Positions 5,645 to 57,511 of a stretch of DNA of 64,000 nucleotides are shown piece after piece. The translations under genes were made by a program, and so were the position numbers. A model generated the notes under the pieces. It did not search any database. It was given only the letters and a program-made list of their open reading frames with translations, and had not been told where the DNA came from. The DNA is taken from positions 1-64,000 of the forward strand of contig JALDTO010000136.1 in NCBI GenBank assembly GCA_023515725.1, in the 5' to 3' direction. Within the stretch, counting starts at the first letter, position 1, and the number at the start of each line of letters is the position of its first letter. Source of the stretch: Amoeboaphelidium protococcarum X5. Taxonomy: Eukaryota; Fungi; Aphelidiomycota.

Positions 5645-5881
5645 AATTATACTTATTTGCTCAGACTATGATTTTTTAACTATTTTTTTTAATATCTTGA
5701 AAATTTAATATCGAATTTTGGTAAAGTCCCGTATGATGCCGGCATTACGACCAGAGCGTTGTGACGTTGTCGATGGATCTACATTGCAACTGCGAATAGG
5801 AGGCTATTTTTAGATTTACTCCATTTCTTTTCTTACAACATGTGCTTTACGTTAAAAATTCGACAAAAATTGCAGTATATC

Positions 5882-6024
5882 TAAGAGAAGAGATATGTCG
5901 CCGGATACTGTTTGGGTCAAATTCGGAATGGGCACACCTGTAAAGATTGCGATATCTTCGTGCATTGATGTTGCTGATGTGATTCGCGCCACCAAAGAGT
6001 AACTAGAGTTACAAGATCGCTTAG
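5882..6024 (+). repeat. 143-bp direct repeat, copy 1 (copy 2 at 10892-11034)
   Basis: taagagaagagatatgtcgccgg...acaagatcgcttag matches 10892-11034 except one base (accaaagag vs accaacgag). Offset 5010 bp. Confidence 0.97.
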
Positions 6025-6029
6025 GATGA
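5895..6029 (+). pseudogene. Truncated copy of the Crinkler-like ubiquitin-type N-terminal head
   Basis: MSPDTVWVKFGMGTPVKIAISSCIDVADVIRATKEQLELQDRLG then TGA at 6027-6029, right after identity with the 10905 gene ends. Confidence 0.7.
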
Positions 6030-6179: not shown

Positions 6180-7913
6180 TCAGTTCACTTCTTCCAAATC
6201 TTCATCATCATCATCGCGCAAATTAATACATTGATATTGGGTCAATCCTGAGCTTGATTCAATGTCATTACCTCCCAGAGCAATTTCCTTGACCTAAGCA
6301 AACGATCCGGAATCGAGCAACTACTTCAATGCATCAGAAAATGCGGGCTCCAGATCATTATAGCGCAAATCGATCATCTGCAACTCTGACTTCTTACTCA
6401 ACTCAATTATCATCGGAACGGCGTGCGTAGTATTCAAAGAAACGTCTTCCAGGTTCAGACTCTTTAGATGATCCCACTAAGCCAACGCGGCCACCAAATC
6501 TTCTCCAGCGTCGACAAAATGGCACCCATTCGGAGAGTCGACAGACATGGCGAGAAAATTGTCAGAAAGGTCCACTGATTTAAGACTGCATTACTTAAGC
6601 GCTACCAATAGAGATTACATCGAAGGCGCAGAGAGAGAGCAGCCTTTAAATGAGACAACAGATAAACTTTTCAAGGAATTTGGCAGGGGATTCAACAAGC
6701 TAAAATCGCCATCTCGTATCTTGTTAAGTGACAAGTTCAAGTCCTACAGTTTGCATCTCGCCAAAGATAAAAGATTGCATAAACGTGGAATTGCCTCCTC
6801 AGGAATTCCGCAATCTTCGCAGTCCAGATTTTGCAGGGAGCGCAGCTCTGCGAGGAACCCAAAAACCAATTCCGCACCCGATGCTCCAAGTGCATTCCTT
6901 GATACAGACAGAAATTTCAAATTAGATTATTGGGTAACACTGGCAACAAGTACAGACAACTATGCCAACAATGAAGGCTGCGTTTTAAAGCAATCACACA
7001 GCCACAACTCCTCCAATTAAAGTAATTCTCTGAATGCATTTGCCAATTCCAGACAAGCTTCCAGATTAAAGCTTGAACCAGTGAGATACACCTTTTTCAG
7101 TGACCTCTAATAAAGTTGAAGGCTTCTGCAAAAACTTATCACCTCAAATCTGCCGACAACTTTTGTTGCATCAACAGGGAACTTTGCTTAAGTAAAGTCA
7201 TCAAACGCGTCAGTTGAGACCTAAAGATTTCGCAGCACGCGAATCAGTCCAAGAGTATCATGCTACTACATAGCATCCATGACGGGGTAAGTTCTTAGCT
7301 CCAAATTTTCAGATACTTCAGCATTAGTAGGAGGCTAGCAAATTTTCACTTGCAATGATCTTTCTTCAGGAATTAAACACTATTCCGCACTTGCCGCACA
7401 CTTCTCATTCACATCTGCTTGTATAACTTGCTCATGGTCATCGAGTATTTCAACTTCAGATGAATGATGGCCTAAAAAAGGTTCAGTTGAATCCTCGCCG
7501 GGCTAACTAGTAGACTGAGTGTTCGACTGCGCAATCAGAGTATTGGATACGAAAGAATAACCAAGTTCTTCAAACAACGAACAATTGGCTGCCTTGCACA
7601 GTGGAATTAGCTGCAGTTTATGTACAGATCGTAAAGTATGAGTTGTCCCACGAAGCTCCTCCACTTTCACACCACATGATGAATACACGTCTGACCCTAA
7701 TTTTCCTCCATACTCCTTAACACCCGATCTTCTCAAATTGTCCAAGAATGTACCAAACTACTGATTTGAAACCAGCTTGCCATTCAAAGGTATAATAGGC
7801 ACCAACTTCTTGTAATCAACGAACCCATCATCATCTGGTGTGATGCCGTGTTTCGTCAAGAAAGCATTTACTGCACCAGTTCTGAAAAGCAATATGTCAG
7901 TTTAATTCATCAT
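6180..7913 (-). CDS. RNI-like leucine-rich-repeat protein (divergent RanGAP-like) with long N-terminal extension, 577 aa
   Basis: Single TAR=Gln frame from ATG 7913 to TGA 6182-6180. LRRs: LKFLSVSRNALGASG, LQDLNLSLNKI, LKSVDLSDNFL, WDHLKSLNLEDVSL, LQMIDLRYNDL, IALGGNDI. Acidic tail DDDDEDLEEVN. Confidence 0.8.
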
Positions 7914-9030: not shown

Positions 9031-10010
9031 TTAACAGCGCTTTCAATTTAACAGCTTTCAATTCAACAGCGCTTTCAATTTAACAGCATTCAATTCAACA
9101 GTACTTTCAGTTTTACAGCTTTCAAATTCACAGTACTTTCAGTTTTTCAGCTTTCAATTTAACAGCTTTCAAATTCACAGTACTTTCAATTCAACAGCTT
9201 TCAATTTAACAGCTTTCAATTTAACAGTACTTTCAGTTTTACAGCTTTCAATTGAACAGCTTTCAAATTCACAGTACTTTCAATTTAACAGCTTTCAAAT
9301 TCACAGTACTTTCAGTTTTACAGCTTTCAATTTAACAGCTTTCAAATTCACAGTACTTTCAATTCAACAGCTTTCAATTTAACAGCTTTCAAATTCACAG
9401 TACTTTCAATTTAACAGCTTTCAAATTCACAGTACTTTCAGTTTTACAGCTTTCAATTTAACAGCTTTCAAATTCACAGTACTTTCAATTCAACAGCTTT
9501 CAATTTAACAGCTTTCAAATTCACAGTACTTTCAGTTTTACAGCTTTCAAATTCACAGTACTTTCAATTTAACAGCTTTCAAATTCACAGTACTTTCAAT
9601 TCAACAGCTTTCAATTTAACAGCTTTCAAATTCACAGTACTTTCAATTTAACAGCTTTCAAATTCACAGTACTTTCAGTTTTACAGCTTTCAATTTAACA
9701 GCTTTCAAATTCACAGTACTTTCAATTCAACAGCTTTCAATTTAACAGCTTTCAAATTCACAGTACTTTCAGTTTTACAGCTTTCAATTTAACAGCTTTC
9801 AAATTCACAGTACTTTCAATTTTACAGCTTTCATATTCACAGTACTTTCAATTTAACAGCTTTCAAATTCACAGTACTTTCAGTTTTACAGCTTTCATAT
9901 TCACAGTACTTTCAATTTAACAGTACTTTCAATTCAACAGCTTTCAATTTAACAGTACTTTCAACTTAACAGCATTCAGTTTAACGGTACTTTCAACTTA
10001 ACAGCTTTCA
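9031..10010. repeat. ~980-bp minisatellite of mixed 15- and 17-bp units with a 126-bp higher-order repeat
   Basis: Units cagctttcaatttaa, cagctttcaaattca, cagtactttcaattcaa, cagtactttcagtttta. The same 126-bp block starts at 9272, 9398 and 9635. Units at both edges are diverged. Confidence 0.97.
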
Positions 10011-10891
10011 TCAGAAGCAGCACAAATGCGTTGCTTGAAAGACCAACTAGCACAGTGCTTCCGCCGAGCCTGGGCAGCTCTTAGGCGCCGCCCAACATGC
10101 TCATCTTCTACTTTTCATAAAGATAGTTTTTATATCCTTCTAGCTACTTAACTTACTCCTGCTACTTGAACTACTAGGAATGGCGAGTTTCATTTTGAGG
10201 CTTACCTGTGGCAACTTTCTCAGCTTAACAATGCTCCTACGTTAAATCTGTTAATCAACCTTATTCATATTCTTCTAGCCATCGTTCTGAACTCGGCTCG
10301 CAATTTTCTAAGAGTGCAGTGTTCGTTGATTCATTGTTCTGTGTCCTGCTGAAGATCTGGTAGTTTAGAAATGATCATAGCAGGTGGAAGGATATTAAGT
10401 ACAAAATCAACTGGCATAAGCGACGTAACTAGCTGGCACATCAGAAGAGGTGGAGAATAGTCGATGAGGAGGGAACCGCATCAGAGAACGCTCACCATTT
10501 CCTACCGACGAACCGCCATGTACTGCATCGTATTATTATTGTAAATTTTTTTCATATGACATATAATATAGTAGGCTACAATATTAGAGTAGTATCATCA
10601 TCTTCAGACACAAAAGACGTAATTATCTAATCGATATCGAAGTCATCCATATGATGATAATCGTAAAAGGTATAGACGTCTTAAAGAGAAAGAGACGAAA
10701 GTTTCATATGTGGCTCGTTAAATACGCGCGTCTTAATTTAAGTTGAAAGTTGGATTGACGCGTTGATCCTCTCAGATCTTCATATCTTGACTTATTTTTA
10801 GATTTTCTCCATCTCTTTCACTTCAGCAGCAAGTGTATTACTTTAAAAAGTTTGTTACAATAACGTAATAAGACGTAATAATAAAAGAATA

Positions 10892-11034
10892 TAAGAGAAG
10901 AGATATGTCGCCGGATACTGTTTGGGTCAAATTCGGAATGGGCACACCTGTAAAGATTGCGATATCTTCGTGCATTGATGTTGCTGATGTGATTCGCGCC
11001 ACCAACGAGTAACTAGAGTTACAAGATCGCTTAG
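10892..11034 (+). repeat. 143-bp direct repeat, copy 2
   Basis: 142/143 identical to 5882-6024. Covers the 5' UTR and first 43 codons of the rhomboid-fusion gene. Confidence 0.97.
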
Positions 11035-11945
11035 ATTAGCTTTACTTTTTAGTTCAAGAGGGTCATAGTTGGAAATTGTAGAGACCCGGTATGACTCTCA
11101 TTAATTTGCTATAGAAATATCCTCAAGCCGGATAATCAGATTCTAATTGCATCATGATTAGGAAAATCGCAACTGCTTCAAATCACAGAGAAGAACATTA
11201 TGATTTTGGCCGTGATATGTTTGATAGCGGATTAGAACAGGAGCGTGAAGATAAAGATTTATTGATTAAATCATTGAATTCTGCTGTGGAAGTAGCTTTA
11301 AAATTTCTATATGGGATTTTTGGAGTCTTTCGCCGTGCCACAGTCGATCTACATTGGTCCACTATGGCATATGTGGTTGTACATCTTGATGACTTGAGGA
11401 AATTCAATTTATACTCTTAAAATGGACTTTGCATTGCGCTGCTATTTAGTCTTTATTGTTGGCTTGACTCAAAGCCAGCAGATTTTGCGCGTAAGCACTT
11501 CACCTCTTCGCAAAGTAATATGGAACGCGGTAGGTACATGACTCTCCTCACATCATCGTTTGCACACGTTGATCTTGATCATTTGATATGCAACGTGATA
11601 TCTCTCGTATTATTGGGGCCTGATTTTGATATGCTTTTTAACATCGAAGGCTACGTTTTATTTGTGATACTTAGTAGTGTATTTTCCAGCTGGGTAAGCG
11701 TCAAGACACACGGCAAACCGTCTATGGGGTTTAGCGGTGTCATATGCGCTATGGAAGGATTTCTACTCTTGGCACACCGTGAAGACGTCCGTCATATATT
11801 TACTAACTACATTATTTATTGTATCGCTCGATGGGATGATCAAATCGATCATGTCGCGCATTGTGCAGGTTTCGCATTTGGAGTCGGTTACTTCAAAGTG
11901 CTTTAGAGAAGCTTTAGTAGACAGAATTACATTCGTGCATACTGA
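10905..11945 (+). CDS. Rhomboid-family intramembrane serine protease with N-terminal Crinkler-like ubiquitin-type domain, 346 aa
   Basis: One frame from ATG 10905 to TGA 11943-11945, joining track ORFs 11154 and 11520. Rhomboid motifs TLLTSSFAHVDLDHLICN, catalytic GFSG, IDHVAHCAG. N-terminal ~85 aa: VWVKFGMGTPVKIAISSCIDVADVIRAT...RPGMTL..L...AGQSDSNCIMIR. Confidence 0.85.
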
Positions 11946-19544: not shown

Positions 19545-20185
19545 TTGATATAGAGCAGCTAGTATCAACTCTCTTCCGAAAACTGGTACATTTGTCGCAA
19601 TTCAGAAATGCAGTTTTCGTTTGCCAAGTTTGGCAAACTTCACACACCCGCATAAGCTCACTGTTATAACTCAACAATTTATATAGAACTAGTATATCAT
19701 TGGATGCGCTACAAGCTTGCACAAATGGAATTGGTCATTACTTGAGTGGTGACATTGTTACCGCCAGTTGAACTCCAGATAACACAATGTGTGGCTACTT
19801 ATGCCCAATCAATCAACTATAGTGCCACCATATAACATTCTAACCACTCTAAGACTTGATAGAACTATGGAGTCGACCATCAAGAATCTATAAAGTCGTA
19901 CTTCAAGTGCTAAATCGCCAGCCTCGAAAGGTGAGATACTTTAGGCCATATTTTATGGCTAATCTTTTGACTTTAGCCAGAAAATGTGGCTAAAGTGTCT
20001 GACGTTATGAGGAGTGATCTTGAAACACTAATATTTGGTGGATAGGTGTAGTTTTGGATGTTCTTTAGAATGGTACTATTGAAAGTGGTCAAAGACTAAC
20101 TGGTTACCCTTGGATAGCGGCGAGAAGTCCAGTTTTGACTCCGCGCAGCCACTCATTGCGCCACTGCGAGCGTCTTGGTGTCAAA

Positions 20186-21275
20186 CTGCTCACTCACAAC
20201 GGCAAAACTCATGCCAAGCATTTGCCGACTGCTTTGGGAAATTCAGTATGGTCAAAAGCGTATATCCAAGTAATTTCCAACTGTGCTCAAGTTATCTACT
20301 CGATGTGCTGTTCCATTCTAACTGATAGAATTGCCCAGTCAGTTACCTCTAAGTAAGGCCGCGCGAGCCAGTGTCTAGCTATTAGAATTGCGCGCAGGCA
20401 ACATCAATACTCATGCTGCGCATTCGCTGGTGGCTCTGGGTGATTCAATATGCTTAATATTGTATGTCTAAGTAATTTTCAAGTGTGGTGAACTGGTCTG
20501 CTCGCTGTACTGTCACATTCTAACCTCTAGAATTTCTCAGCTGTATATTCTAAAAAATTAGACTGCTCACTCACAGCTTCAAAAAGAATGCTGCGCTCTC
20601 GCAGCTGCTTCATTTGATTTAGTATAGACAATATATTATATCCAAGTAGTTTTCAAGTGTTTAATGTTGCCTACTCAGTGTGCTGTTACATTCTAATCTG
20701 TGGAATCGCTCGGTTAACATATAGTGATGCGCTATGCTGATATTCTAATAACTAGACTCTGACCCCTCAACACCAAACGTCATGCTGTACATTTGCTGGC
20801 TACTTCAGATGATTCAGTATGGTCAATAATATATTTCTTAACAGTTTTCAAGTTCCCGCACGTTGTCTACTCAATGTACTGTCACATTCTAGTTTCTAGA
20901 ATTTCTTAGCCGGATATTCTGATATCTAGACTCTGCTCCCTCAAGACTGAACCTGAAGCTGCGCATTCGCTGGCTGCTTCAGGTGATTCAGTATGCTTAA
21001 TACTGTATATCTAAGACGTTGTCAAGTTTGCTAAAGTTGCCTACTCCGTGCGCTGTCAGATTCTAATTATTAGAATTTCTGAAGCGGATATTCTAAAGTT
21101 TAGCCTGCTCTCTCGCAACACCAAAACTCATTCTGCGTATTCGCTGACTGCTTTAGATGATTCAGTATGGTCGATATATTATGTCCAAGTAGTTTTCAAT
21201 TATGCTGAAGTTGGCGACTCGCTGTGCTGTTACATTCTACTCTTTAGGATCGCTCAGTAAACTCCAGGTGAGGCG
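20186..21275. repeat. Degenerate tandem array of ~174-bp units (about 6 copies)
   Basis: Recurring blocks ...tcatgctgcgcattcgctggctgct..gatgattcagtatggtcaat..tatatccaagtagttttcaag..ctactc..tgtgctgtcacattcta..tagaatt.., starting near 20186, 20400, 20563, 20757, 20931 and 21103. Confidence 0.85.
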
Positions 21276-21834
21276 GCACCTAACCAGTGACTATTAAGCA
21301 GCATGGGTAATAAGTAAGGTTACAACACCATAAAGCTGCCATTACTCAAAACTTAGTGTATTCTGATAGTGAAGCACCTGTCCACTCTCCGATCTCAGCC
21401 TGGAATGTACAGTTTGCGGTTTTATCACAACTCTGTCAACGGCCACAGGCGACAGCATTAAGTAAGCTACCGCGCAATATAATATTCGAAAATAATGCAA
21501 CTAAGGAAAGGAATATCAGTACATAAAATAAGGTGCTAAAATTTGAATTCACAACCATTGATGTGCTGATGAAATTTCGTTGGTGAGTGAGAATTTTCCA
21601 CTGTCGATATCATCAGTCTTTGTTGTTTCAGCTCGCAAATTCTTTTCTCGCTCTGGGCTCTGGGTGAAACAAAACGAACTCTGCACGTTATTTCTTATTG
21701 TTCCTGTTGTTGTTATTTGTCCAGTCCATTGAAGTGTAATAATAATAATAATAATAATAATAAGAGTGAGTGTACTGTGAGTTATCACAGTTTTTATTTT
21801 GAATTTATACACTTTGATATATACAGCTCTAATT

Positions 21835-32636: not shown

Positions 32637-35600
32637 ATGAATACCGATGAATTTTTGGCCAAGTACAGTGTCCCTAGTCCGTTGAAGTTTAAACGAGAAT
32701 CATCGAGAGCATCGTTATTATTTCAACCGTCCAATATAGACTTTTGGCTTCTTAGAAGTACTCCAATCTAGGAGAATGTAATCTTCTCTCCAGCTGGCGA
32801 TATTGATTTTGCGCTTCCACCTCCATTATCTGCGTCTCCTAGAGTTCAATAATAGGGATTTGCGTCACCGCTGCGTAAAAGAGATACCACCATGTTTGAG
32901 ATACCTTTCACGGTGGCTGAGAAAGTGCTCGCCGATCCTGATACTGTGCCGCCTCCTGAACCACTCAGCCCTGTAAAGATTCAAGAGTATAGGCTCTCTC
33001 GTATGCTGCCACAGGATATGCAGTTATCCACGTAGTAGTTGTTGTTGTATCCTGATCCTCCAAAGTCACCTCTGCCGCAGCCTTTGATTGAGTAGCCTTA
33101 GTTATTGATCATGAAATCTGGAGTGTTGCTTTCCCAAGTGTCTTCTTAAAATTCATTGAATACATCACAGCGCGGTGCTATTACCGCCGCTGTATCCAAG
33201 TTGTCACTGCCTGATGATGGCGCAGATGCGTATAGCACTTAGTTGAGCACGAGAACTGTGACACAGGGAAACTTTTATAGCTATGATGCCAATTTGAGTA
33301 GTATGGGCTTGGAAGTTGACCGCTCTGCCACTCAGTACTATGACTTCAATGATAGTGCTCCGGATGATGAGCCTTTGCCTTTAGTGACTGCAAAGAAGTC
33401 TTCTCCTACGCCCGTGGCTGAAAGTCAATTTCAAGATGCTGATACTCTCTTTAAGCCGTAGATTGGTGTTATCGCTACTCAAGATTAGATTTACGTATAC
33501 TCGAATGAAGGCGTCCCGTGTCTTTTGTGTGGAATAAGTGACTCCACCTCAGTGGCAGATATTGTTGCCAAGTGGGTCAGTGCTTAGATGGCAAAGTCTA
33601 CTGATAGAGCTGGTGATCAGGAGACTGCAATTCCGACACTTGCTGCTCAAGATTATGGTCTCGTTATCTTGTAAAAAGATCAGCTGAACAAGGTTGTTGA
33701 TTTCATCGATGAGACCAAACAGTATGGAAGCCTAACTCCAGAGTCTGTTGATGATTTGCTTATTATTCGACGCCGCTCACCTCAACTTTTCAATGTGAAG
33801 GTGTAATTTCCTGATAATCAGCACTTGTACGTGTAAAGTTCTCTGTTCACTACCACGGAGCAATTGGTGAGAGATCTTGTGAACTAAGTAGTCAGCTCTA
33901 GTAATGATGAGATGTAAGCTTTCATCTATGACCACGTACCTGAGGATGTTATAGAGAGTTCGAGTGCTGTTATTAAGTAATTGGGTATTTGGAGGCTATC
34001 GCTGGATTCTAGCGAATAAGTGACTGGGTTTTTAAAGATGGACGAGACACCATTCACGCCTTTAGATTCTCAGATTCGATACATTTTGAAGCCTATAGGA
34101 GCCGACAGTAGTATCGAGGATGTAGTCGGCAGTGTAGATCAAGATGAGAATTGTGTATATAGAGTTTATCTATCAACGGGGTAGTATAGAGGAGTCGTGG
34201 CTGCCAATAATACGTCTGCAAGTAATCTATTTAGCGCCTTTTGTAAAACTTTAAAGATTTAGAATGTATTAGGGTAGTCGTTTTAGTGGTCACTTGCTCT
34301 CATAGATCGCGACACAGACTAAATCTCTGAGATTAGTCAGCAGTCAGCTATAACTGAAATTGTCAACAACGGTGGCTAATAAGATTTGTGCCTTGTTAAA
34401 GATGAATAAGGCTTTCAATCTCTAGGTAAAGCATGCATGATCACTTACCATGAGGTTGAGCGTGTATTCTTTGAATGTGCTTCCAATGCTGTAGCAGACC
34501 AGTTTGCGGGTGCCATTTTGGAGGAACTTGCCTCGCTGGATGACATAAAAAGCGCACTGCTTAGCTATGCGTAGTCCATGTCGACTGGCCTGGTTGAGTC
34601 TGACGATACTTCAAGTCACAACGATTAGTCAGTTCAGAATTCTAACAGTGTCCAGATGCCTTCTACAATTACATCTAGTGCAACGAACGTGACTTCAAAG
34701 CGTACCTCTGTTATTGCCTAAGCTTTATCAGGCTAAGACAGTGATTTGATTAAGGACAAGTTGCGTAAGATTTATAGAAATTCTTCTATGGCCTCTAACT
34801 TCTCAGACTTGAAGCCACTTGAGGCGGATACAGGTAAATCTAGCAGGTCTGGTGGATCTGGTGGTATCTCTGCTCAATACGATTAGGATGCAAAGAGACT
34901 GAATAAATTGATATCTGTTCTGGGTCTGCAGGATGAGTCGGATTTAGTCAAGTATTTGCTAGAAAGTAATAATCCGGTGGGTAGTAGCGATAAAAGTAAA
35001 TAGAAAGTGGTGTAACTTCTAGGCCTCAATGATCCTGGTACATTCCGCAGTAGAAGAACTGCAGGTGTAATTTCATAAAGTTCTTTTATGAAGGGTGGCA
35101 AGTCGAGTAGTAAGAAGGGTGGGAAAAGTGGACAATCTTCACCCAAAGTGGAACCTAAAAAATCCAAAGCGAGCCTTCGTGTTGGAGGAGCTGTTACTGC
35201 GGATGAATAGAGTCAGAGTTCTAATTCTAAGCCTTCAGTTGTCAATAACCAGTTCTATGCTCGTATCTATCTGACTAATCAGACATACAAAAGTTTGAAT
35301 TTGCATAAAGACGCCCTGGTGTAAGATGTCATCTTATTGCTTATTGAGAGACTCAATATTAAGGATGATTATGAGCAGTATATGCTTTTCCAGGATGATG
35401 GTGTAACTTAGAAGGTTTTGCAAGCGACTTAAAAGGTGCTGGAAGTTTTAAATGCGTAAAGTGATGGCAGTATTATAGTTTTCAAGAAGAATAAAGCTGT
35501 TCAAAGAGCTTCATCGGAGTCTTTGGCATCTCTCATGTCCGCGTCATCCAAAGATAGGCCTGATATGCGTAAGTCTGTTCTGTTCAATAGACGCGCTGCG

Positions 35601-37124
35601 AAAGTGGCCAATATTCTGGGAGTCAATGACAAGAAGGATCAGTTTAATTCAGAGAATCCTGCTGTGAAGGACATTGTTCACATTTTGAAGACATCTTCAG
35701 TAGTCAAGGAGCGTAAAGTTGAAATTGAATCTATAACAAAGGAAGGATGGCTGGTGCTGGAGAACGGTAAAGATGGCGTTAAGCCGAAAAATAAGAGCCT
35801 TTGGTGCTATATTGAGAATTGCAAATTTATTGTTACCGAGAAGTCCCCCTCCAAAGAGACTGTATAAGTGCTGAAATTAGTTTTGAGCGATTACTTCATT
35901 CAGAAAGGCTAGTAGGGAAGATATTGCATTGAAGTAGTTTCCAAACTTAATGCCGCTGATGTGCATATATTTTACGCAGACTCGGCATCGGCTTGTGATG
36001 GATGGATATTGGCCTTAACGGAGGCTACTAAACGTAAGTCTGCTGGAATATCGAGTCAGTCGTAGAAGCTTAAAGAGCAAGCAGTTTCCATGGATGATTT
36101 TCAAGTGCATAAAGTTTTAGGACGTGGTAAGTTTGGTAAGGTACTGTTGTGTTAGAAGAAGTCCAACGGACAGATTTATGCAATCAAAGTTGTTAAAAAG
36201 TCTGGCATCAGAGATTCTAGAGAGATTCTGAACAACAAGACTGAGAATTAAATTTTGCGTGCCATCAGACATCCATTCATCGTTGGACTGCATTATGCTT
36301 TCTAAACTGATACTCGACTCTACTTGGTATTGGAGTATGTGAATGGAGGAGAGCTATTCTTCCATATTAGCAATTTTGGTAGATTTTCTGAGGAGAGAGT
36401 TAAATTCTATACTGCTGAGCTGTCTCTGGCGCTCCAGTCCCTGCATGGGAAAGGCATTTTGTACCGTGATCTAAAACTAGAAAATATTCTGCTGGATCGT
36501 GATGGCCACGTAAAATTGACCGATTTTGGTTTGAGTAAGGTTAATTCTGATGGAGTAGATAATGCTGATGGTGGTGGCGGTGATGACGATGATAGCGTCA
36601 TTGCCGGCACCTTTGAGTACTTGGCACCCGAAATTATTGGTGGTCTAACGGGAAGTTACGCGGCCGATTGGTGGGCACTGGGTGTTGTCATGTTTGAGAT
36701 GCTCTGCGGCTATCATCCGTTCTACTGTGAGGATCGTGATGAACTTTGTCAGAGAATCATGTACATGAAAATAGAGTACCCTCAGTACGTTTCTGCTGAT
36801 GCACGTGATGCTTTACATAGACTACTGCACAGGGATCCGAACAAGAGATTATGCTGCGGGTCGAAAGGTGCCATTGAGTTGTAGAAACACAAGTTCTTTA
36901 GTTCAATCGACTTTGACTTGCTGTTTAAGAAGGAGCTGCCTGTACCATTCAGACCAGAAGTCAATGATGATCTGGATGTGAAGTATTTTGATGATGACTT
37001 TCTCCAGCAGGACATTGGCGACACTCCAGATAGTGTCAATTCCTATCTCGCCGAGCGGCCGGGAGTGTTTCAAGAATTTGGTTTCAACCAGGACGCGCTC
37101 TCGATTAGATCAAAGAAGATATGA
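32637..37124 (+). CDS. Large AGC-group Ser/Thr kinase (PKB/Akt-like) with PH domain and several putative Ras-association domains, 1495 aa
   Basis: ATG 32637 (in-frame TGA at 32628 upstream) to TGA 37122-37124. PH: ITKEGWL..LWCYIEN..FYADSASACDGWILAL. Kinase: GRGKFGKV, YAIK, HPFIVGLHYAFQT, YRDLKLEN, LTDFGLSK, APE. AGC tail PVPFRP..YFD..FQEFGF. Confidence 0.85.
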
Positions 37125-49694: not shown

Positions 49695-50936
49695 ATGACA
49701 AGGACAAAGGTCTTATAAATACACATTTTGATAGTCACGCTCCTAATTTTCCTTGCCTAGAGCATGCAATTGAGCTGCGGTAATATGAATGGCATCTCGT
49801 GTGATACTGGCTTTTGTTGTAGCTCTCGCGGCTACTGTGGTATTACCGCGGGTCATTGTGGCCGGGGATGTTAGTCCATCTTTGGATCATGCTGGCCTGA
49901 TTAGAACGCGTCTCAAGATCCATTACCATAGCCTGAATTATCATCGCTGCAATAAGAATAGCCTGTGGAATAACTGCAGCCCAAGAGATTCTTCTTAAGA
50001 CGTATATTCTCCAAGACGGAGAAGGCTGATGCACGCGTAGGGAGGCAGGTGACGTGCGGTCACATGAATGGCCAGTCTTGTGGTCAAGGCGATTGTTGCA
50101 GCTCTAATGGAATCTGTGGCAAGACTCTGGGTCACTGTGGCACAGGATGTCAATCCGCGTTTGGCCTATGCTGGAGTCCTAATGAGGTTAAACGTAAAAC
50201 TGAGAAGATAAAGAATGGTGGCGTCCGTATTCCTTATTATGACATTTGGAAGGAGCCCAATCTGGTTAAGACTGCAATGAATGCTAAGTTCGGGGATACT
50301 ATCCATTTTTCATCACCAGAGGATGATATCCATGTTCCGTAGACTTATAAACCGCGCACAATGATTCCAATGCTTCCATACGTGGCTCCATGTTAATTAG
50401 TATGTAACAGGGTCAAGAATAAAGCTTATCACGGCCTGGCGACCAGCGATATTGGATTAGTGGCCTAGGCTTATCTAAATGCCGTAAATGGCCTACCTCC
50501 TGTAGGTAAAGAAACTTTAATTCATGGCGCAAACCTAGTGGTACTGACAGCCGTTATTACCGCCATTCAATGCATGGGCATTATAGCTCTGGGGGCTTTT
50601 AACGCCTTTGCACCAGTTATTGCCGCCCCGCATTTGCTAATGGTTGCTCAAATCAGCGGCCCTAATTCGGTTGATTATTTGCGCATTATCCATGCATGTG
50701 AAATTTATTTAAAGAAGAGAGTAGGTAAGAAGGCATTGCAGGATTTAGCTGAAATTGGCAGGTATCGCAATCACGGCGGAGTTCCTTTTCAAATGTGGTT
50801 GATGCGGCAGCGCGTTTAGATAGAGATGAAAACGGATTCCAGTGGTTAGCAGTGCGTTGAGTACTAATCTGATACAGTGTAAGAGTATGGATAGATAATG
50901 GATGACTTGTTGCCTCAACAATTTTAAGAATAGTGA
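49695..50936 (+). CDS. Secreted protein with two hevein/CBM18 chitin-binding domains and an unknown C-terminal domain, 413 aa
   Basis: Signal MTRTKVLQIHILIVTLLIFLAQSMQ. First hevein CGNMNGISCDTGFCCSSRGYCGITAGHCGRGCQSIFGSC, linker ..VEQLQPKR-FFLRR, second hevein CGHMNGQSCGQGDCCSSNGICGKTLGHCGTGCQSAFGLC. Ends TAG-TGA at 50936. Confidence 0.88.
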
Positions 50937-54436: not shown

Positions 54437-55195
54437 AGATGATGCAAGTTGATTACGACTCTAATACGCAGACACAAGTCTTTTCTCAAAGTCATCACTG
54501 CCACCACTATTACCAGGGACACCCCAAATTCCCATTAATGGATACAGATGAGCAAGAAGGTCGAAATTGTAACTCATCGTCTTTACTAATTACTAACAGC
54601 TATAAAGTGCGGTACGGTGATCAGTGGTCAAAAGAACGGTAATGGGAATGAAACACTGCGAGGAAAAGAGACGCGCGCGCGTGCCTGAAACTTCCAAAGG
54701 AAGAGAAACTCATCACACAGTCAGTCACACGTGTGCGGATACACATTGTCGTTAAGGTGTGTGCATGTAGTGTATACGTTGACTCCAATATAATAAGCGC
54801 ATATTAGTACTGGCATAACTGAATTAATTTTATGCAACGAGTTCATACAGCTGTATTTACAGCATAAATTAAAGAGAAACCTCCTTGGTGGTCAAAACTA
54901 GTCTGAAAACAATTAGGAAACCACACCGCGTCCCGACAGGAGTATTTGGAGATTATACTGTACATTGAATACTCTGCAAATCACAATCACATAATTGCCC
55001 AATTTATTCTCATCGACATTATATGAGTTGTTCGCTAAGACCGTCTTATCAAGGTCATATAACGGGCTAGGATTAATTTTATATACAAGTTCAGGAGTAG
55101 ATTTGCCCCTGATTACAATGCTGATATAGTTGCCGCGCGCCCGACTTTTCAACGATTGTACTCTCAATCTTCAGTCCGCCCATAAACTACCAAAA

Positions 55196-57511
55196 ATGAG
55201 ATTATAACTGCTATCTATTCCAATACTATACCTATCGTGCTGTGTGTCGGGTGGCTGGTTTGGAAGATCTTCTGGTAGTCGTGCTTCAGATACTGATGCT
55301 TTCAGTTTGAATCCTGGCTATTCGCTTAACACGGAGAATGCTCTCGGCGTGGCAAAGTAGATGATTAATCGCGTCAAAGAGTATCCAGATGCTTTGGATT
55401 CATTGGCCAAGCTGATTCTGGCTGCTGATACATCTCAGGCCAACTATGTTAGAAATGTATAGAAACACTGGAGTAGCTTAGTTGCATCTCTGAATAGTCA
55501 ATCTATGCCTTTTCCGCTGCTTTTGAAATCTGTGGTTGATCAGTCGCCGTTACCTGATGACTTGAAATTTCTGCTGCAATCGAAGATTTTGCAATAATTG
55601 TCCAGCCTTGTTGATTTATTGAGCCAAAGAGATGCTTCCAGTGGTGATGGTGAACTGAGCTTATTTACTTCTACTAGTATTGAGTATGCTGTTGCGTAAA
55701 TAAATGTTCACTTAAAGTTGATCAAGCTTGGCTTCTTCCAAAGTGTGATTGATGGCTTTATCGATCGCCTGTTGGAAACCATTGTCGCCGACAGTTAGGC
55801 GAAGGAATTTAAATTCGCGGATAAGGAGCTTATTGCAAATACGGTAAAGAATTATGCTCTGGCAGTGAAGAAGCTGACGATTGCCTATGTCGATAATGGC
55901 CCTGTGGTTATCAAGCGACGTATGATTGCTCAATTGCTGACCGCTGGTATTCATCAAGAAACAGTTGAAGGAATGGTGGCTCATATGCTTGTTGGCACTG
56001 GTGTGATGTTGCAGAAGGCGCTTTAAGTATTTTTGGGATTTGCTGAACAATCGCACCCTTCCATTGAGGAAGTCTCCAAGATTATGCGCTCTAAAGTACC
56101 GATTTTCAATGAGGACTTGCTGCCAGAAGTATTTTCACGCGTTTTTGTTGAAGGAGATCCGTTAAAGTCTGGCTTTGTCGAATTCGGCGATGAGCCTATA
56201 TCTCAGGGAACCGTAGGTATAGTGTACAAGGCCAAGCTTGGGGAGTCGGCTGCGGAGCTGTATGGCTTCGATGAAGTTGCTGTAAAGCTGAGAAGATCAG
56301 ACGCTAAGGAATTGGTATAGGCCGAGTTTAGCGCAATTGAAGGCTAGCTATCCAACATTCACCCATTCCTGGCTAAAGTCATCTTATCGCTCAAGGAATC
56401 GGTTGAGGAGGAGTTTGATTTTGATTTGGAGGCTGCGAATCTGCGCCAAGGCTATAAGGTGTTTGAGAATCGTCGCAAAAATATCAGAGTGACCCGTTTG
56501 TGGGGTGTACTACCTGTCAGAAAGCCATGGCTGAAGCAGTAGCCGGCTGAAGCAATTATTACTCAATGGGCGCCGGGCGTGGTTCTGGACAAAGAGTATT
56601 CTGCAGCTTAGAGGGAATTGGTGTCCTCATCTGTTGAGCCTGTTGACAAGTATTGTTCTCTGAGACTTCAGCTGACCTCACTCGGATTCACGTCGTTCTA
56701 ATCATCCTTAGGTGGCAGCGGTTTTTATCATGCTGATCTACATTTGAGTAATATGAAGTATGATTAGGAGACTGGTACTTTGTGGCTGCTTGACTTTGGA
56801 AATGCTGGTTACTTGAGACTTTCAGATAGAGCTACGTAACTAAGTGCTTCAATGAGTATGTTAAGGCTCAACGGCGACGGTATGTTCAATACTCTAAAAG
56901 AGTATGCCATCGAAAATAACGCTTATGAGGAAGCATCTCCATCTACGTGGAAGGCGTTTAGAAAGTCTCTGAATGAGTAGAGCAAGGAGTCTAAAGCTAA
57001 TATTGCAGAGTTAAAGCTTGAATAGCAGCGCATAGAAAAACTTTTGAAAAGTGCGCGTCTTCAGGTAAGCTCTGGTAGCAGCTAAACTGGCACAAGTGCG
57101 GATGAGGATACTGTTGAATAGTATGTGAACTAGTTATAAGACATTAAACTCAAGATTTTGCAAGCTAAAAGTGCTTTTTCTTCTGCTGTTATGAGTTAGG
57201 CCGTCTCTCTGCTCATTCCTATCCCGATGTGGTTCATTAATTATTCTCGCGGTGTTGCGTTGATGATTTCTACTATAATGAACGCATAGGTGTTCGCATA
57301 GGCTGCGAAATGCCCATCTGTTGATTATACGCTAACTGGTGTTGCGACTTTTGTAAAGACGTATGCTGGTCTAGGTGGACGCGTCTTTGGTCACTCGATT
57401 TGGAAGTCTATTACTTGGCCGTTTAGATAAGTGCGTAACTGGCTAAGAAATCGTCGCAACAAATATGGCCACGCTAATAGACTGGGACCAGAGTTCTAGT
57501 AGTACGAGTGA
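55196..57511 (+). CDS. Divergent ABC1/UbiB-family atypical kinase with predicted signal peptide, 771 aa
   Basis: N-terminus MRLQLLSIPILYLSCCVSG/GWFG. GVMLQKALQ, EPISQGTVGIVYKAKL, EVAVKLRR, EEEFDFDLEAANL, IITQWAPG, FYHADLHLSNM, LLDFGNAG. TGA 57509-57511. Confidence 0.82.

Follow-up and report, generated by a model that had tools for sequence, protein, structure and literature searches.

An apparently undescribed fusion of a Crinkler-like ubiquitin-type head with a rhomboid protease in Amoeboaphelidium protococcarum

Background

LxLFLAK is the classical motif of oomycete Crinkler (CRN) proteins, and many CR headers are without it. Crinkler/CR proteins (Pfam PF20147) start with a ubiquitin-like (Ubl) header, which is followed by an enzyme domain. 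This header may serve secretion, translocation or plain protein binding. The C-terminal domains listed for the CR proteins comprise NTPase, REase, kinase, HNH, trypsin, zincin, Ulp1 and GTPase; rhomboid is absent from that list (PMC5289972). The same source describes the N-terminal Ubl domain of the fungal proteins Ssk1/Mcs4 as related to CR headers; these response regulators are soluble, contain a receiver domain and have no protease.

Active rhomboids (GlpG, PARL/Pcp1 and secretases A and B; MEROPS S54) are defined by a GxSx serine motif together with an A/GH histidine motif (PMC12615303). About 80% of rhomboids carry a WR motif, which is found as WR in secretase A and as xR in secretase B, and its arginine matters for the activity of GlpG and RHBDL2 (PMC12615303). 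Soluble add-on domains are described as common on rhomboids and as regulatory (PMC12615303). Some rhomboid folds (RHBDL4, fission-yeast Rbd2, Dsc2 and UBAC2) are tied to ubiquitin or Cdc48 (PMC12615303), and one rhomboid of a parasite, SSPbP03 of Plasmodiophora brassicae, has been placed in an effector dataset (PMC9653874). In that protein the rhomboid domain begins at residue 35-83, and its listing contains neither a Ubl nor a Crinkler domain (PMC9653874).

Here we analyse a gene of Amoeboaphelidium protococcarum, a member of the aphelids, which live as parasitoids of algae (PMC7325670). Its product combines a predicted Ubl head with a rhomboid domain and represents a real and conserved domain architecture that is apparently undescribed.

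Results and discussion

One reading frame for both domains

Within the window (the whole stretch of 64,000 nucleotides that was analysed) the gene consists of a single 346-codon ORF at 10905-11945 (+), read with genetic code table 6: seven TAA/TAG codons are translated as Gln and TGA is the stop. The neighbouring gene for alanyl-tRNA synthetase speaks for table 6: its 964-aa product reads through 24 TAA/TAG codons and matches Pfam tRNA-synt_2c (E 9e-208). GC content and Gln codon use resemble those of the other window genes measured, and three annotated proteins of A. protococcarum (KAI3649181, KAI3645803 and KAI3636604) have the same length of 346 aa and are 86-87% identical to the window protein. 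A chance ORF of code 6 was ruled out, since the fusion is called as one ORF in metagenomes and two other phyla have it annotated in their NCBI records. The features of the gene are as follows:

10905..11945 (+), full ORF: single exon, 346 aa, consisting of Ubl head, variable linker and rhomboid protease
10905..11168 (+), predicted beta-grasp (ubiquitin-like) head: aa 1-88, without a C-terminal diglycine
11169..11399 (+), linker: aa 89-165, variable, with a hydrophobic W-T segment (aa 150-160) conserved at its end
11400..11900 (+), Rhomboid (peptidase S54) domain: aa 166-332, Pfam PF01694
11565..11594 (+), HxxxxHxxxN motif: HVDLDHLICN, aa 221-230, with H221, H226 and N230
11727..11738 (+), GFSG motif: aa 275-278, with the predicted catalytic Ser277
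11859..11861 (+), predicted catalytic His319: AHxxG motif within DHVAHCAG (aa 315-322), AH at 318-319

The conserved W-T segment may form an amphipathic or an extra membrane helix.

The N-terminal head

The head is clearly predicted to adopt a beta-grasp fold. From a 20-row alignment of aa 1-92, AlphaFold2 yields a model with pLDDT 88.8 and pTM 0.79, in which the elements follow the order strand-strand-helix-strand-strand-helix-strand. Searching the PDB with this model, Foldseek returns ubiquitin, NEDD8, FERM and RA domains as top rows. VIA-align gives the FERM domain of IDOL as best match (Z 10.5, rmsd 2.5, 84 aligned residues); Z 8 or more is reached by 83 of 48161 chains, none of which stands out. 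The fold alone names no lineage. In BFVD, a fold search met nothing but generic ubiquitins (E 0.001 or better in no case), three chance matches came from scanning PDB sequences with the head profile, and a comparison of the head with the RA domain of a kinase encoded in the window reached a probability of 3.9%. Pfam ubiquitin and UBX families stayed below cut-off on all proteins and heads scanned.

More specific indications come from the ESM Atlas, where the results concern two homologues (P0008 and P0009) and not the window protein itself. In the feature search with P0008, 28 of the 30 hits are Crinkler-bearing clusters; the best score is 0.93 (203 of 256 features in common), and in the top three clusters Pfam Crinkler is present on 18-48% of the members. 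The first structure row of P0008 is likewise a Crinkler cluster, at a score below the bar the tool sets for naming a family. Once Crinkler clusters were excluded, the feature search with P0009 returned no usable match. A response-regulator cluster appears in the top structure rows of both homologues, also below the naming bar, which is where the likeness to Ssk1/Mcs4 lies.

By motif, in contrast to these likenesses, the head is not that of a classical CRN. LxLFLAK is found in 0 of 33 proteins (the window protein reads LYFLVQ), whereas the shorter LxLF occurs in 14 of 30 head-bearing proteins, 13 of which belong to one lineage. The header-end motif HVLxxP is absent as well: the equivalent last strand reads NCIMIR in the window protein and HPLLIR in most relatives. 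Pfam Crinkler (PF20147; cut-off 24.6 bits) is never reached and gives nothing on the window protein; scores below the cut-off were obtained on two of 14 proteins (E 0.038 and 0.054) and on one of nine heads (E 0.14). What is shared with Crinkler proteins is the position of the Ubl header at the start of the protein and ahead of an enzyme domain, the LxLF that many relatives carry in the third strand, and a last strand of HxL type that resembles HVLxxP. Weighing these sequence comparisons together, we consider that the head probably descends from CR headers. Besides the motifs, the partner differs: the only one found is a polytopic membrane protease, and the protein, unlike Crinklers, would be neither soluble nor targeted to the nucleus.

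The rhomboid domain

Pfam Rhomboid (PF01694) matches aa 209-332 of the window protein with E 2e-15 and 57.5 bits (cut-off 22.6), and the family profile finds Haemophilus influenzae GlpG at E 4e-9 with the Ser and His motifs lined up. HxxxxHxxxN is unchanged in all six divergent family members compared, and GxSG is present in nine of nine full-length members scanned. The catalytic His is found in eight of these nine, the Paraphysoderma protein being the one without. GFSG and AH of the window protein correspond to the two motifs by which active rhomboids are defined in PMC12615303. With the serine-protease motifs intact, the domain is a candidate active protease.

In two respects the protein departs from known active rhomboids: a Ubl head stands where they have a presequence or an N-domain of the GlpG type, and the L1-loop WR motif is missing. 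The latter is absent from the whole family in our alignments, the window protein having MT at this site and its relatives WT or WV; this counts against both secretase classes, yet not against membership of the rhomboid family. The L1 and TM4 motifs may be PARL/RBL12-like. By charge count, the N-terminus, an acidic head predicted to be folded from residue 5 on, is unlike a mitochondrial presequence: its first 40 residues contain 1 R, 2 K and 5 D/E. The acyl-CoA dehydrogenase encoded in the window, for comparison, has a presequence-like N-terminus with 5 R and no D/E in the first 20 residues. A Kyte-Doolittle scan detects a moderately hydrophobic segment ahead of TM1 in four of nine members, giving topologies of 6 or 1+6 helices between which loop charges gave no decision. 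Full-length AlphaFold2 on the single sequence resulted in an unusable model (pLDDT 40).

A tree of eight fusion rhomboids and 10 prokaryotic rhomboids from GTDB loci splits off the fusion family at 100/100 and places no prokaryote of this set close to it. A close prokaryotic donor was not found in the GTDB scan, in which nine of 32 matches, a small sample, are distant rhomboids; the best of them reaches 63.7 bits in five genomes.

A sequence-only reading of this DNA had proposed a ubiquitin-like head of Crinkler resemblance in front of a rhomboid with intact motifs, and had noted that a basic presequence of the PARL/Pcp1 type is lacking. All of these points are borne out, with Crinkler N-terminal domains (through P0008 in the ESM Atlas) as the closest likeness of the head. 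It had further suspected that the pairing is undescribed, and this apparently holds: in the literature searched (the survey of Zhang et al. 2016 lies outside its scope) we found no description of a Ubl or Crinkler-type head joined to a rhomboid, and the text and one supplement file of a dual RNA-seq study (PMC8657485) mention neither rhomboid nor Crinkler.

Distribution and partners of the head

With the head alone as query, phmmer finds 15 matches in 1.84 billion representatives. Five of these carry Pfam Rhomboid and three run in frame into family sequence. Another four have out-of-frame tails that derive from the same gene: one tail matches a metagenomic locus of the family (L001) directly, the other three share their tails with proteins that match it. 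The last three comprise two heads that end with nothing recognisable behind them and one spurious repeat. Searching longer proteins with a head profile gives 10 matches, of which seven carry Pfam Rhomboid, two stop within family sequence and the tenth is due to chance (E 3.8). Taking both searches together (15 + 10 matches), no recognisable partner other than rhomboid is seen. Distant heads with other partners could have been missed, since phmmer used a single query sequence and the profile search scored the best 7997 candidates. A full-length alignment search among 3330 candidates retrieved four members, all of them already known. No match for the head-rhomboid family was obtained in a plasmid search, and in two IMG/VR scans none of the 93 and none of the 41 sequences that fitted the pattern is a relative.

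The fusion is carried by Amoeboaphelidium, by Gorgonomyces haynaldii (KAI8910114; Chytridiomycota), by Paraphysoderma sedebokerense (KAI9141357; Blastocladiomycota) and by metagenomes. The Gorgonomyces and Paraphysoderma proteins belong to the five phmmer matches with a full fusion. Three named species appear among the matches, though clustering can hide more. Two of the three named carriers are parasitic on algae, P. sedebokerense being described as a pathogen of algae; G. haynaldii is called a saprotroph (bioRxiv 10.1101/2023.06.28.546836), and its epitype comes from pollen bait (PMC11210171).

Compared to eight non-aphelid full-length members, the window protein is 35-45% identical in the head and 34-41% in the rhomboid, against 6-19% in the linker. 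Among aphelid copies the head is 90-93% identical. Identities of head and rhomboid are correlated (Spearman 0.77 over 28 pairs, which are not independent), and the head tree and the rhomboid tree contain identical shallow groups, with deep nodes that lack resolution. Judged from these identities, head and rhomboid have long been together, either by descent or by transfer as one unit.

Among the metagenomic members, L001 is the sole locus with DNA; it adjoins a COG6 gene and is thus eukaryotic. At positions 3-653 of this locus lies the rhomboid of a fusion copy that is degenerate around the last helix. One metagenomic lineage comprises many variants, the heads of which are mostly 81-93% identical and several of which are frame-shifted; assembly errors may contribute to such broken copies. 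A divergent head is found in the JGI protein P0017 (118 aa; 24-28% identity to the window protein), which ends soon past the domain; it could represent a head occurring on its own, a first exon or a gene that has been broken.

A truncated duplicate and a long upstream gap

A second, partial copy of the head was located upstream of the gene:

5879..6029 (+), truncated copy of recent origin: 43 codons of the head behind 16 leader bases, followed by Gly and TGA

Positions 5879-6024 are identical to 10889-11034 at 144 of 146 bases, whereas the flanks agree at 10 of 30 bases on each side. The fragment is situated in a 535-base gap on which the NOC3 and LRR genes converge, and has no partner domain. 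A spliced partner was ruled out, as the frame closes immediately and only about 150 bases remain up to the converging LRR gene. Residue 34 is Lys in the duplicate, as it is in the three annotated A. protococcarum proteins, but Asn in the full gene. Comprising half a domain and no partner, the duplicate is a recent dead-end copy and not a shuffled module. The head profile, run against 1361 six-frame segments, finds only the gene and this fragment in the 64-kb window. The duplicated header that the sequence-only reading had pointed to therefore exists, but as a 43-codon fragment it lends no support to shuffling, and the idea of a shuffled module itself is not supported, given that rhomboid is the only partner recognised in the 15 + 10 matches of the head searches and that identities track each other across three phyla.

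The gap upstream of the head-rhomboid gene measures 2991 bases, the second longest of 22 gaps between hand-picked long ORFs (median about 317). Long intergenic regions have been described around chytrid CRN-like genes (PMC5364385).

What the protein may do

Overall, we rate as somewhat better than even the reading in which the rhomboid, equipped with a domesticated Crinkler-type docking head, acts in the organism's own membranes and cuts the organism's own membrane proteins. The other readings rank behind it in the order of cell-autonomous defence, delivery into the host and quality control. The folded acidic N-terminus without presequence, together with several membrane helices, suggests that the protein would be inserted into own membranes with its head in the cytosol. 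There the head would dock a partner, and the rhomboid would cut membrane proteins inside these membranes. Such a role is favoured by the regulatory add-on domains of other rhomboids and by Plasmodium rhomboids, which cleave the parasite's own adhesins (PMC12615303). It is further supported by rhomboid being the sole partner that the head searches found, by a head that is as conserved as the catalytic domain and by the occurrence in a saprotroph. Against it stands the absence of the WR motif, given the importance of its Arg in GlpG and RHBDL2. Moreover, a conflict gene with fast turnover fits better than a housekeeping gene in view of the few named species (two of them parasitising algae), and the broken metagenomic copies, the Paraphysoderma protein without His, the partial duplicate and the 3.0-kb upstream gap point in the same direction.

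These latter features lead to cell-autonomous conflict or defence, which we nevertheless regard as unlikely. Here the CR-type head would sense, or be bound by, a cytosolic signal of an invader and activate the rhomboid, which would then cut own membrane proteins and so halt an intracellular parasite, a virus or an incompatible partner. Non-pathogens carry CR proteins too, and a role in conflicts between organisms has been proposed (PMC5289972, PMC5364385). Birth-and-death turnover would fit the broken copies, the single catalytic loss, the partial duplicate and the few named carriers, and delivery across membranes is not required. On the other hand, head and protease are strongly conserved in aphelid copies (90-93% for the head), the neighbours of the gene are housekeeping genes, and the broken metagenomic copies may in part be assembly errors.

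Still lower do we place a delivered effector that cuts host membrane proteins, as the sequence-only reading had envisaged: a role that is doubtful at best. The CR-type head would in this case route the protease into a membrane of the algal host. The head of P0008 resembles Crinkler N-termini, to which a role in secretion and translocation is ascribed (PMC5289972), and most of the named carriers (two out of three) parasitise algae. Peptidases of the trypsin, zincin and Ulp1 types are already known as CR partners (PMC5289972), and the headless SSPbP03 offers a precedent for a rhomboid in an effector dataset. However, the fusion is present in the saprotroph G. haynaldii as well, partner swapping is not seen in the 15 + 10 matches of the head searches, and LxLFLAK (0 of 33) and Pfam Crinkler (below cut-off) give no support. 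A multi-pass protein would also need transfer from membrane to membrane. Rhomboids are not known to cut outside the membrane that they occupy. Finally, the host nucleus is the destination of those CRNs for which a localisation is available (PMC5289972).

Quality control, in which the Ubl head would recruit the proteasome or Cdc48 to a rhomboid clipping damaged membrane proteins (modelled on RHBDL4 or Rbd2, the Crinkler likeness then being incidental), could draw on the broad ubiquitin-type fold matches without a standout and on the ubiquitin or Cdc48 ties of RHBDL4, Rbd2, Dsc2 and UBAC2, but is very improbable: P0009 has no usable feature match outside Crinkler clusters, Pfam ubiquitin/UBX never exceeds cut-off, and a core gene should be widespread whereas few named genomes appeared. 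The known proteins bear ubiquitin-binding modules or use Cdc48 as adaptor; here the module itself has the predicted ubiquitin fold, is N-terminal and is Crinkler-like.

Returning to the preferred protease of own membranes, its value lies in what it may tell about the Crinkler header. A header that is fixed on a membrane-anchored enzyme in three phyla, and in a saprotroph among them, lends itself naturally to such a test: since the head most likely does not travel in soluble form and is yet conserved like the catalytic domain, it must have a separable binding or regulatory job. This is less dramatic than a freshly shuffled effector that cuts host proteins, but provides a useful handle on header function. 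In addition, a rhomboid subfamily is added for aphelids, chytrids and blastoclads, two named carriers of which damage microalgal cultures. If host delivery were true after all, this would be the first multi-pass membrane enzyme among CR effectors; it would need a membrane-to-membrane delivery route, and the targets of CR proteins would be extended from the nucleus to membrane proteins.

Other features of the window

Several other genes of the window were noted. At 49695-50936 (+) a candidate secreted protein is encoded with a signal-peptide-like start and two chitin-binding domains; its C-terminal half has no Pfam match. The 577-aa leucine-rich-repeat protein at 6180-7913 (-) has an N-terminal region without assignment and is RanGAP-like by eye only. 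A 797-aa ABC1 atypical kinase-like protein at 55118-57511 (+) combines a hydrophobic stretch near the N-terminus with long regions that lack a Pfam match. The 1495-aa protein at 32637-37124 (+) has a Pfam RA domain (aa 872-952), to which more RA-like repeats may be added by eye, and carries at its C-terminus a kinase that seems to be of the AGC type; this is an unusual, Ras-effector-like layout.

Rfam gave no match in the window. Repeats are present at two sites. Between topoisomerase I and polo-like kinase a degenerate array is found at 20185-21293, with periods of roughly 175-200 bases and copies that are 65-75% alike. An AT-rich tandem satellite of about 1 kb (9039-10010), situated 0.9 kb upstream of the head-rhomboid gene, is built from units of 15-17 bases and shows higher-order periods of 32, 47 and 126.
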